From: a virus
Virus record (IMG/VR): IMGVR_UViG_3300045988_082204
Direction: 5' to 3' (one strand)
Length of the DNA stretch: 44,485 nt
The notes under the pieces were generated by a model that worked only from the letters and a program-made list of their open reading frames with translations, made no database searches and was not told where the DNA came from. Below are positions 1,052 to 4,843 of the stretch, piece after piece (position 1 is the first letter of the stretch; each line of letters opens with the position of its first letter). The position numbers were made by a program, and so were the translations under genes.

Positions 1052-1651
1052 GTGAGACACCTTGGTGACATCACAAAAATCAATGGCGCCGAGATTGAGC
1101 CGGTGCATTGCGTCATCGGTGGTAGCCCTTGCCAGGATCTCAGTATCGCAGGAAAACGCGCAGGGCTGAACGGTGAGCGCTCTGGACTTTTTATGGAGCA
1201 AGTACGAATTGTTAAGGAGATGAGAGAAAAATATGGAACAGCTTACCCTCGATTTATGGTGTGGGAAAATGTCACCGGAGCATTCAGTAGCAACAAGGGA
1301 GCCGACTTCGCGGCGGTCCTCACGGAAATCATCCGCATCGTCGAGCCGGAAGCCTCCGATATTGAAGTGCCTGAAAAAGGATGGCCTACTTGGGGAGGAT
1401 ACCACGATGAGGTGGGAGGACGATGGAGCGTGGTATGGCGAACTCACGATGCGCAATACTGGGGAGTGCCCCAACGCCGTCGCCGTATCTCGGTTGTCGC
1501 AGATTTTGGAGGAGACGCCGCATCCGAAATACAATTTGACCGCAAAAGCGTGTCAGGGGATATTGCGGAGAGCGGAGCGCCGGGGGAAAGACTTGCCGGA
1601 AACGCTGAAAGCGGTGCTTCTTATGCAGTCCGCATCAGGGGGGGGCTGTGA
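1052..1651 (+). CDS. Cytosine-5 DNA methyltransferase, catalytic-core segment (motifs III-VIII only)
   Basis: GTG 1052 follows AGGGAGAGG. Motifs present: GDIT, GGSPCQDLS (catalytic Cys), ENV, QRRRR. There is no FxGxG motif at the N-terminus. The frame ends at TGA 1649-1651, right after a G8 run. Confidence 0.7.
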   Translation: MRHLGDITKINGAEIEPVHCVIGGSPCQDLSIAGKRAGLNGERSGLFMEQVRIVKEMREKYGTAYPRFMVWENVTGAFSSNKGADFAAVLTEIIRIVEPEASDIEVPEKGWPTWGGYHDEVGGRWSVVWRTHDAQYWGVPQRRRRISVVADFGGDAASEIQFDRKSVSGDIAESGAPGERLAGNAESGASYAVRIRGGL

Positions 1652-2474
1652 CGGAGGCGGCAAAGGAGCGTTAGTGCAGACGGAGAAAAGCGGAACGCTC
1701 GGCACGGAGAACGACCAGACGATTTTTTGCCTTGCAACACAGCAAGGCGGTGCAGAACTGCGGACAGATGACCGAGCGCCCACATTGACCGCAGCGGCTG
1801 GCATGAGCGGGAACAATCAGCCAGTAGTGGCTATCCCCACGGCATATAGCTTTGACAGTTTGTCCAGCAACAGCATGACCAGTAAAAACCAAGGCGGTAT
1901 TGCGGTGCTGTGCCTGAACAATCAGGGCGGGAATGTGATGGGCGTGAGCCATGATGTTTCCGGGACGCTGAGAGAACAGGAGCATGGACACCAGCCGTCC
2001 ATTCTGGATATGAGCCATGCTTGCGACATCATCCGAGACTGCGGCAAGGTAGCCCCCAGCCTGCAAGCAAAAGAAAGCGGAGGGCAAAGCCTGAACCTGA
2101 ATAATACGATACGGCAGAACATGGTGGTACGCCGATTGACACCGTTGGAATGTACCCGCTTGCAGGGTTACCCGGACGGATGGGTGGACATTGGCGACTG
2201 GACGGATGAGAAAGGCAAGAAACACAAGGATGCGGACAGCCCGAAGTACAAGGCACTGGGCAACTCCATCGCTCTGCCCTTCTGGAACTGGATGCTGCGG
2301 CGTATGGCGTGGCATCTGCCGAAGGGCGCAACGCTGGGGAGTTTGTTCGACGGCATCGGAGGGTTCTCACTGATTTGGGAACGCATACACGGTAGAGGCA
2401 CAGCACGGTGGGCAAGCGAGATCGAAGCATTTCCCATTGCCGTGACGAAGAAACATTTTTCGGAGGAAGAATGA
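1233..2474 (+). CDS. Cytosine-5 DNA methyltransferase, target-recognition/C-terminal segment with motifs IX, X, then I and II
   Basis: Frame-0 ORF with RRLTPLECTRLQGYPDGW (IX), ALGNSIALP (X), then LFDGIGGF (I) and WASEIE (II) at the extreme C-terminus. The first ~140 codons overlap the 1052..1651 frame. The true N-terminus is unresolved (own ATG or fusion at the G8 run). Confidence 0.7.
   Translation: MEQLTLDLWCGKMSPEHSVATREPTSRRSSRKSSASSSRKPPILKCLKKDGLLGEDTTMRWEDDGAWYGELTMRNTGECPNAVAVSRLSQILEETPHPKYNLTAKACQGILRRAERRGKDLPETLKAVLLMQSASGGGCDGGGKGALVQTEKSGTLGTENDQTIFCLATQQGGAELRTDDRAPTLTAAAGMSGNNQPVVAIPTAYSFDSLSSNSMTSKNQGGIAVLCLNNQGGNVMGVSHDVSGTLREQEHGHQPSILDMSHACDIIRDCGKVAPSLQAKESGGQSLNLNNTIRQNMVVRRLTPLECTRLQGYPDGWVDIGDWTDEKGKKHKDADSPKYKALGNSIALPFWNWMLRRMAWHLPKGATLGSLFDGIGGFSLIWERIHGRGTARWASEIEAFPIAVTKKHFSEEE
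1638..1645 (+). repeat. G8 homopolymer at the frame switch of the MTase locus
   Basis: Eight consecutive G end 3 nt before the frame-2 stop codon (TGA 1649-1651). Removing one G joins frame 2 to frame 0 (..VRIRGG-CDGGGKGALVQ..). Confidence 0.9.
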
Positions 2475-4390: not shown

Positions 4391-4843
4391 ATGAACAACA
4401 AAGTCATGTTTTCCAGCGCTAAGAACGACTGGGAAACCCCGCAGGCGCTATTCGACGAGCTTGATAGGGAATTTAACTTTACCCTTGACGCAGCCGCGAG
4501 CCCGACTAACGCAAAGTGCGCCAAATACTACACCGAAGAAAATAACGGCCTTGCGCAGAACTGGTGCGGTGAAACGGTATTCTGCAATCCACCTTACGGC
4601 AGCAAGGCAACAGGCGAATGGACGCGCAAGTGCTACGAAGAAGCACAGAAGCCGGGAACAGTGGTCGTGCTGCTTATACCGGCGCGGACGGATCGCGCCA
4701 GCTTCCACGACTACATATTAAACAAAGCGGAAATACGGTTTCTGCGCGGGCGGCTTAAATTTGAACAGGGCGGTAAGCCTTTAGATTGCGCACCATTCCC
4801 ATCAATGATCTGTATTTGGAGGTCAACATGGCAAAAAACGTAG
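4391..4843 (+). CDS. Phage Dam-type DNA N6-adenine methyltransferase
   Basis: WETPQALFDELDREFNFTLDAAAS ... FCNPPYG (NPPY catalytic motif). Size and pattern fit small phage N6-A MTases. Confidence 0.8.
   Translation: MNNKVMFSSAKNDWETPQALFDELDREFNFTLDAAASPTNAKCAKYYTEENNGLAQNWCGETVFCNPPYGSKATGEWTRKCYEEAQKPGTVVVLLIPARTDRASFHDYILNKAEIRFLRGRLKFEQGGKPLDCAPFPSMICIWRSTWQKT

Follow-up and report, generated by a model that had tools for sequence, protein, structure and literature searches.

What kind of enzyme is encoded by a DNA (cytosine-5)-methyltransferase (C5-MTase) locus whose conserved motifs run in an unusual order and are divided between two overlapping open reading frames (ORFs)? The question is raised by positions 1,052 to 2,474 (plus strand) of the IMG/VR virus record IMGVR_UViG_3300045988_082204, a stretch of 44,485 nucleotides (nt) here called the window, which belongs to a temperate, contractile-tailed phage (terminase, portal, sheath, tape measure and integrase are encoded in it). 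We consider it highly probable that the locus is a natural circularly permuted C5-MTase of a gut phage, of the type known from protein engineering as Class B, whose split state is determined by a poly-G tract and which carries a conserved overprinted gene.

All motifs were found where the first-pass annotation had placed them, in the order III-IV-VI-VIII-TRD-IX-X-I-II (TRD, target-recognition domain), and every feature described here lies on the plus strand. ORF-A, the 'head' subunit (1052..1651, frame 2, 199 amino acids (aa)), has a GTG start and contains motifs III (HLGDITK, 1058-1078), IV (GGSPCQDLS, 1118-1144, holding the catalytic Cys and in frame in the window), VI ((W)ENV, 1262-1273) and VIII (QRRRR, 1472-1486), and it ends 4 nt past a run of eight G residues (G8, 1638..1645). 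ORF-B (1233..2474, frame 3, 413 aa) has an ATG start and consists of a domain in an alternative (alt) frame, the TRD region, motif IX (RRLTPLECTRLQGYPDGW, 2130-2183), motif X (ALGNSIALP, 2253-2279), a linker from X to I (RRMAWHLPKGATLGS, 2298-2342), the S-adenosylmethionine (AdoMet)-binding motif I (LFDGIGGF, 2343-2366) and the acidic motif II (WASEIE, 2409-2426), closed by a stop codon at 2472-2474. Motifs IX and X lie in the match to PF00145 and align with HhaI, and I and II align with the HhaI 15-56 stretch. The GTG at 1052 does follow directly on an upstream stop, as had been noted: the preceding gene, a cell-wall hydrolase, ends with TGA at 1047-1049, the GTG begins 2 nt later, and a Shine-Dalgarno (SD)-like GGGAGAGG stands at 1036-1043, 8 nt before it. 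Relatives have AGGAGG about 7 nt ahead of GTG/ATG-(K/R)HLGD.

Each ORF matches a different part of the same family. ORF-A covers PF00145 profile positions 47-129 (E 1e-22) and matches phrog_116 (E 4e-38), and ORF-B covers PF00145 positions 269-316 (E 6e-9) and matches phrog_16427 (E 3e-44) over residues 290-411, which comprise IX-X-I-II. A match to TIGR00675 (dcm; E 1e-21) falls under the whole-protein cut-off because the gene is split. Together the two ORFs hold the full complement of C5-MTase motifs, that is I and II, then IV, VI and VIII, with IX and X after the TRD, and dropping one G from the run at 1638-1645 joins them into a 473-aa fusion.

This fusion aligns with canonical enzymes in a way that locates its new termini between motifs II and III, as had been proposed. 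In BLASTP against the canonical-order enzyme of Anaerotruncus colihominis, fusion residues 3-351 correspond to 48-420 (E 2e-57), 355-420 to 543-596, and 427-469 to 3-43 (67% identity, E 5e-11), so that the break drops only four canonical residues, 44-47, and just six residues stand for the canonical C-terminal tail plus the initiator Met, which agrees with the short X-to-I linker reported earlier. A profile of the homologues aligned with M.HhaI in four pieces (5-58 with HhaI 59-112, 133-156 with 146-169, 432-489 with 271-316 and 502-545 with 15-56); in this alignment the permuted chain begins at about HhaI 59 and ends at about HhaI 56. Judged from these alignments, the locus belongs to a C5-MTase family permuted between II and III, the 'Class B' topology.

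The first-pass annotation had asked whether homologues share this order, and they do. A scan of IMG/VR with the intact homologue L002, a single 590-aa ORF, gave at least 599 viral relatives; the 80 best by full-length homology (51-100% identity) were all colinear along the whole permuted protein, and 77 of these had the permuted order in one ORF. The same order recurs in more than 150 related gut-phage contigs examined, mostly in the form of a single unbroken ORF of 460-775 aa. A search at the protein level gave 8000 matches, the top ones being 489-775 aa long with mostly 99-100% query coverage, and the best were named at most 'DNA (cytosine-5)-methyltransferase'. Species-representative bacterial genomes held about 5 permuted loci, in metagenome-assembled genomes (MAGs) of Oscillospiraceae, Clostridia and Lachnospiraceae, against about 63 canonical-order relatives; relatives occur mainly in MAGs of Oscillospiraceae and other Clostridia. 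Because most relatives carry the same order as one intact ORF, the permutation is a trait of the family and not a product of decay.

Natural permuted C5-MTases were listed in 2018 by Slaska-Kiss et al. as M.BssHII, M.Alw26I, M2.Eco31I, M.Esp3I and M2.BsaI together with 22 REBASE entries, and their break always lies in the variable region (PMC5944983), which bears out the earlier remark that the breakpoint of M.BssHII is a different one. The M.BssHII group (Type H) shares with the window a permuted C5-MTase fold with X ahead of I, but its order is IX-X-I..VIII, both of its domains are whole and its break is in the variable region, whereas the window, with the order III..VIII-TRD-IX-X-I-II, is broken inside the large domain. 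Class B enzymes, with a new N-terminus between II and III, were represented in the 2018 survey by engineered proteins only, the most active ones there, with none in nature; the II/III permutation was the best tolerated, and the authors asked why nature does not use it, suggesting poor AdoMet affinity in vivo (PMC5944983). In the literature since 2018 our search found no report of a natural II/III permutant, REBASE entries since 2018 being outside that search. The engineered Class B enzymes resemble the window protein in having their N-terminus between II and III and their native termini joined directly or via a short linker. They are laboratory constructs derived from CG-specific mollicute enzymes, whereas the gut-phage family is natural and abundant, and combines a TRD that is long and modular with an overprinted gene and a poly-G tract. 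Plant DRM2 is also a permuted C5-MTase, but a eukaryotic one with another breakpoint, motifs VI-X preceding I-V; DRM2 chains in the PDB match the family profile with the motif IV region near their C-terminus. As for how the permutation arose, the earlier proposal of tandem duplication followed by end trimming predicts the very pattern of break and join that we found; for the origin itself we infer, as likely, a tandem duplication of a canonical gene, an in-frame fusion and loss of the outer parts.

If the family is mostly single-chain, what splits the window gene? The length of the poly-G tract decides which frame is joined to the body made of TRD-IX-X-I-II. Our survey covered 59 non-redundant loci with the tract, drawn from phage, viral and genome sets, and the tract occurs in them in two contexts, T1 (that of the window) and T2 (shifted one base upstream relative to T1). 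With seven G residues in T1 the MTase frame runs into the body (main-fused, 34 loci; one more G7 locus connects neither frame), with G8 the +1 frame does so (alt-fused, 8 loci including the window), a single G5 locus also joins the +1 frame to the body, and a single G6 locus connects neither. In T2 the G6 loci are main-fused (4), the G7 loci alt-fused (9) and the one G8 locus neither. The reading state thus follows tract length in all but one of the 59, and tract length was predictive over about 130 contigs.

A scan of metagenomes, in which 76 human-gut contigs were picked by their flanks only, gave a similar spread of lengths: in T1 one G5, one G6, 36 G7 and seven G8, and in T2 nine G6, 11 G7, one G8 and one G9. 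Main-fused contigs numbered 46, alt-fused ones 19 and those in the dead frame 2; the 19:2 ratio corresponds to a binomial p of about 2e-4 in a hand calculation that takes no account of shared ancestry. The viral set had the +1 state over the third frame by about 18 to 3. Because of the 19:2 asymmetry in metagenomes, these data suggest that the alt-fused state is tolerated or favoured and the third frame is not. The G8 of the window appears to be a common natural allele, an assembly error in this one contig being an unlikely alternative. In phase-variable DNA methyltransferases (phasevarions), the length of a homopolymer in the coding region sets the reading frame. The window locus resembles them in that a coding-region repeat sets the frame and that length variants, from G5 to G9, are common among its close relatives; it differs in that its out-of-frame state joins a second conserved frame to the body instead of being plainly OFF. 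Programmed ribosomal +1 frameshifting at the G run was considered and rejected as the main route, as many members lack the tract and G7 genes need no shift.

What, then, is the second frame? The 5' part of ORF-B (1233..1640, 136 codons), laid over motifs VI-VIII, appears to be a conserved overprinted coding sequence that is apparently undescribed. It has a start context of its own, with the SD AAGGAG at 1214-1219, inside the main-frame VKEMRE, and an alt-frame stop TGA at 1221-1223. The context AAGGAGATGAG...ATG is kept in both permuted and canonical relatives; in most loci AAGGAG and the alt-frame TGA are followed by ATG 1-6 codons on, and 71 of 89 non-redundant permuted and canonical loci have an SD-like site 3-14 nt ahead of the overprinted ATG. 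Over VI-VIII the +1 frame is open for 138-179 codons with LSxIL in 77 MTase-selected loci, of which 74 also have RGKxLP, compared with merely 11-42 open codons in the +2 frame of the same 77. It is likewise open in C-terminus-selected loci and in nearly all canonical relatives in bacterial genomes. When synonymous codons were randomised with the MTase protein of the window held fixed, the +1 frame acquired a mean of 5.05 stops, and the probability of none was 0.0017.

Patterns of variation point the same way. Among 79 unique sequences, diversity at MTase third positions is 0.40-0.59 outside the overlap and drops stepwise to 0.09 inside it, and in the last ~45 codons of the overlap the most variable site is MTase position 1, which is alt position 3. 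Between WENV and QRRRR the window is more similar to 59 canonical relatives in the MTase frame (identity 0.52) than in the alt frame (0.41). Over the 48 codons past QRRRR the order is reversed, with 0.39 for the MTase frame and 0.62 for the alt frame; against 154 permuted relatives the corresponding values are 0.70 and 0.85. The MTase frame over the bases of the alt helical module (SRLSQILEETPHPKYNLTAKACQGILRRAERRGKDLPETLKAVLLMQ, 1488..1628) is a G/A/S/E-rich linker, and so complements the structure predicted for the alt frame with AlphaFold2 (AF2).

The alt frame reaches well beyond the gut-phage family. A tblastn search with the 61-aa alt module matched 134 records of annotated phages, and in 6 of 6 records examined the module lay in the +1 frame of an annotated C5-MTase coding sequence (Escherichia phage P1 dmt, Pseudomonas TC7_028, Streptococcus Javan191_0021, Mycobacterium Omega gp127, Vibrio CP-T1 gp12 and the MTase of Akkermansia phage Chantilly). 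The whole alt frame, traced in three of the six, was open for 135-163 codons. Across phyla the alignment keeps (L/S)LSQ(V/I)LE..P.(K/R)Y(F/Y)LS.KAC.GILRRA..RGK.LP..L..AL in the alt frame, the MTase frame is not conserved past ..ILFE..G, and alt position 3 shows the lowest nucleotide identity (0.44, versus 0.59 and 0.57 at positions 1 and 2). In P1-like sequences the alt frame is open in 52 of 53 and MTase third-position diversity collapses inside the overlap; the selection signal there is consistent though weak, because the P1-like viral loci are 88-99% identical. The P1 annotation calls no gene at the alt ORF within dmt, which occupies NC_005856 66710-67201. P1 Dmt and related phage-type C5-MTases belong to the same subfamily as the gut-phage enzymes (QRRRR..VA, RRLTP.ECERLQGFPD) and have the same +1 ORF in the same place, with LSQ(I/V)LE..KY.LS.KAC.GILRRA..RGK.LP common to both. 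The P1-type enzymes, including those of Clostridia prophages, differ in their canonical order I-X and in that no such poly-G tract was seen in them, and P1 Dmt also has a fused Dam domain. By these comparisons the overprinted ORF spans phyla and would be older than the permutation.

Two observations from single phages concern the same frame. An 81-aa 'uncharacterized protein' of Mycobacterium phage Thibault (BFVD G1FGG9) matches the alt module with 41% identity (Foldseek E 5e-3), and some actinophage annotators may already call the alt frame as a gene. In Faecalibacterium phage Lelie, a phage of a cultured host, the MTase region orf48-orf49 (L336, PP479942 34788-36401) is annotated 'hypothetical protein' and has the alt module in the +1 frame relative to orf49.

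A profile search with the alt frame gave 4448 clusters (50% identity, E up to 0.001), some of them stand-alone proteins of about 143-156 aa and others long, with the domain N-terminal to TRD-IX-X(-I-II). AF2 predicted the N-terminal ~80 aa of the alt protein to be disordered and its C-terminal part to be a three-helix module, with a predicted local distance difference test score (pLDDT) above 90 at residues ~100-130. The model had no structural match in the PDB, a hidden Markov model of the alt family matched no PDB sequence even at E up to 10, the peptide belongs to no Pfam, NCBIfam or PHROG family, and the free-standing proteins contain no MTase motif and no Pfam match. A literature search for an overlapping gene in a cytosine methyltransferase found nothing relevant; the out-of-frame HNH insertions of actinophage methylases (PMC11855218) are a different thing from an overprinted frame. 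The nearest precedent for a nested frame in an MTase gene is M.EcoHK31I (alpha/beta), also a C5-MTase gene holding a second protein-coding frame. Its beta polypeptide is short, is encoded in another part of the gene and provides motif IX, whereas the alt ORF of the window lies over VI-VIII, shows the signatures of second-frame coding, contains no MTase motif and hence supplies no motif IX, and is conserved across phyla, either free-standing or fused to the TRD half. The module cannot be an in-frame domain of relatives, as it overlaps the QRRRR codons and so could not follow motif VIII in the same chain. We regard it as probable that the +1 gene of ~140-165 codons on VI-VIII is ancient and functional, occurring from P1 to gut Clostridia phages, that it encodes a helical partner of the MTase, and that the poly-G tract toggles the architectures in which it takes part.

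A two-ORF layout is found outside the permuted clade as well. Of the 63 canonical relatives in bacterial genomes, 37 encode a single chain, 20 encode a head (I-VIII) followed by a second ORF made of alt domain, TRD, IX and X, and the other 6 fit neither layout. Of the 20 two-ORF loci, 19 keep motif IV in frame, and none has a poly-G tract of the window type. The junction of alt domain and TRD is conserved between the two split loci compared, L186 and L201, and the architecture of ORF-B recurs in P0241, P0242, P0244, P0249, P0271 and others, including UniProt A0A8S5LZA8. Because 20 canonical relatives from different species carry it, the split layout looks like a stable design, reminiscent of M.AquI. 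That enzyme is likewise split into two polypeptides, between motif VIII and the distal variable region (PMC3404938), but its motif order is canonical and it shows no sign of an overprinted helical module or a homopolymer switch. The ORF structure of the window fits such a heterodimer, with ORF-A and ORF-B as candidate subunits, and the cut between ORF-A and ORF-B is that of the engineered Class B fragments Mpe[62-279] and Mpe[280-61], which complement one another (PMC5944983). The same head and alt-domain-body layout is found in a phage in which TAG is recoded as Gln (L087, ENA ERZ28653768 scaffold_1994), its protein P0271 having Q in the database where the gene has an in-frame TAG.

These results may be combined into the following scheme. 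The permuted chain runs from the strand of motif III through IV-VIII, the TRD, IX and X and, after a join of ~6 residues, ends with I-II. In the G8 state of the window the products would be ORF-A (III-VIII) and ORF-B (the overprinted domain, then TRD-IX-X-I-II); G7 on the same DNA would give a single-chain enzyme and a free overprinted protein of ~150 aa, the tract acting as a slippage-prone switch between the single-chain and split architectures. The helical partner, perhaps a subunit or a regulator, would be made on its own where the enzyme is a single chain. In split enzymes it would form the N-terminal domain of the TRD half, sit exactly at the cut of the chain and perhaps help that half dock onto the catalytic head. 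The enzyme likely shields phage DNA from host restriction by self-methylation, and several targets are probable because the TRD region is modular.

How firmly does a permuted enzyme with a poly-G-determined split state hold against simpler explanations? The locus does look like two ORFs with a partial Pfam match each, but the resemblance to two decayed fragments of neighbouring MTase genes is superficial, and we consider this account refuted, as is that of an artefact of linearising a circular genome or of a prophage/attP split. More than 150 contigs conserve the X-to-I junction, which falls inside a single ORF, the two ends fit together to within four residues of a canonical enzyme, and nothing is duplicated, so that two adjacent MTase genes do not fit either; intact single-ORF homologues contradict the decayed fragments of ordinary genes that the first-pass annotation had named as its refutation. 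It is unlikely that G8 is a homopolymer sequencing or assembly error in a phage that truly has G7 and a single 473-aa permuted enzyme. Homopolymer runs are prone to such error, and the closest intact homologue, P0121, has the G7-type reading and is 84% identical by BLASTP (92% in a MAFFT alignment), but T1 G8 was present in 8 non-redundant contigs of IMG/VR or of genomes and in 7 metagenome contigs that come from different assemblies, and random error would not favour the +1 frame so strongly over the dead-frame G6, which is rare. Still less likely is that the +1 frame is no gene at all, open as a by-product of conservation in the MTase frame or of a constraint at the level of nucleic acid. 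The disordered N-terminal half of the alt protein and the lack of any family, structure or literature match speak for it; against it stand the higher conservation of the alt frame past QRRRR, where diversity is highest at alt third positions, the conserved SD and ATG, a frame that is open in almost all loci tested, with hosts that range from Streptococcus to Pseudomonas and Mycobacterium, in the face of the low chance per sequence given above, and the presence of the alt frame as N-terminal domain of thousands of called proteins.

The alternative that carries most weight, though we think it doubtful, is that the window copy is an MTase inactivated by frameshift, switched OFF or decaying, and that ORF-B is an accidental read-through product with no enzymatic role. 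Intact relatives have G7, the window lacks a stretch of its TRD modules present in P0121, and many close relatives have a second lesion, at motif IV (described below). Yet motif IV of the window is in frame, ORF-A and ORF-B both keep SD-led starts, the +1 state exceeds the third frame in metagenomes and the viral set alike, the two-ORF layout is stable in canonical relatives of different bacterial species, and the equivalent engineered pair of fragments is active (PMC5944983). Several points nevertheless count against the permuted enzyme with a functional split state that we favour. The motif IV lesion is present in 13 of 18 alt-fused and 24 of 54 main-fused permuted viral loci, and because of this enrichment some alt-fused copies of the permuted clade may be decaying. 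That +1 variants outnumber -1 variants could stem from biased mutation or assembly, or from common descent, and not from selection; an exact look-up found the ORF-B product on record nowhere else, which also suits an assembly error; and the alt module has no match in PDB, Pfam, NCBIfam or PHROG that hints at a function. Finally, the AF2 model of the 473-aa fusion, built from a 40-sequence alignment, has a mean pLDDT of 43, at which the docking of I-II is not readable; the top Foldseek matches of this low-confidence model were all C5-MTases.

A natural Class B enzyme means that a topology known from engineering is now found in nature, in an abundant gut-phage family, and that poor AdoMet affinity as the explanation for missing natural examples becomes testable on natural enzymes. 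Should the overprinted ORF prove real, a well-studied gene of P1 contains a long, conserved overlapping gene on its own strand that has been overlooked; it is likewise unannotated in the phage MTase genes checked and, judging by the profile search, in thousands of related genes. Bacteria and their phages rarely have overlaps of such length and phylogenetic depth. A homopolymer that moves an enzyme between one chain and two, beyond ON/OFF, would if true be a new twist on phase variation. The frame change at a length-polymorphic poly-G, the coding status of the 5' part of ORF-B and the recurrence of the two-ORF state all go beyond what the first-pass annotation had observed. Gene callers treat these loci inconsistently, which makes annotation of the family unreliable: at L005 3818-5546 and L006 4001-5622 the alt ORF was chosen over the longer MTase frame and the MTase was cut up, and the alt-domain-led ORF-B in A0A8S5LZA8 is labelled 'Cytosine specific methyltransferase'.

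When the variable region (1646..2129) is set beside those of P0121 (528 aa), P0133 (685 aa) and P0151 (775 aa), it proves to be a mosaic in which module types such as ..TQQGGAELRTDDRAPTLTAAAGMSGNNQPVV.. and ..LCLNDQGGNVMGVSHDVSGTLRAQEHGHQPS.. are repeated. Modules are gained and lost across homologues of 464-775 aa, and the window is without ~25 aa in the SNSMKSKN..NQGG module of P0121. This suggests multispecific enzymes evolving by module shuffling; enzymes of the SPR / phi3T type have several tandem target-recognising modules, each of which confers one specificity, and in the gut-phage family the mosaic gain and loss is seen at the level of sequence. P0327 (605 aa) has an in-frame HNH-endonuclease-like segment placed after motif IX and before the GWTDIG stretch that precedes X; it is flanked by a duplicated GFP../GWTDIG context and resembles a homing insertion.

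The lesion at motif IV takes a recurrent form. An in-frame PCQ is absent in 37 of 75 C-terminus-selected close permuted relatives, and in 21 non-redundant loci this is due to 4 extra nt, TAGA (once TAGC), placed precisely between the codon for the catalytic Cys and the Gln codon (GGT GGT TCA CCT TGT [TAGA] CAG GAT). Relatives with an insert or loss at motif IV include L001, L004, L032, L038, L051, L081, L091, L094 and L100, and the window is free of the insert. TAGA leaves a mini-ORF of 27 codons (VKHLGD..GGSPC*) with its own SD; on both sides of it variation is dominated by third positions, and upstream there are 8 distinct peptides with no stops. The insert could have arisen repeatedly through a site-specific event, or a bypass of some kind could be at work. 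An element with three tyrosine-recombinase genes (L006 130-3960, ENA ERZ28594484 scaffold_793) is inserted just before CAG GAC of motif IV and ends in a near-perfect palindrome, CCTGGTTATcCCGAATTCGGaATAACCAGG, overlapping CAGG. This element may have the coding sequence of motif IV as its target, in which case TAGA could be the footprint that it leaves.

About 2 kb downstream of the C5-MTase locus, at 4391-4843 (plus strand), the window encodes another DNA methyltransferase, of the N6-adenine type, a protein of 150 aa that matches phrog_111 (E 9e-56) and has an NPPYG-type motif, so that the phage has at least two MTases.

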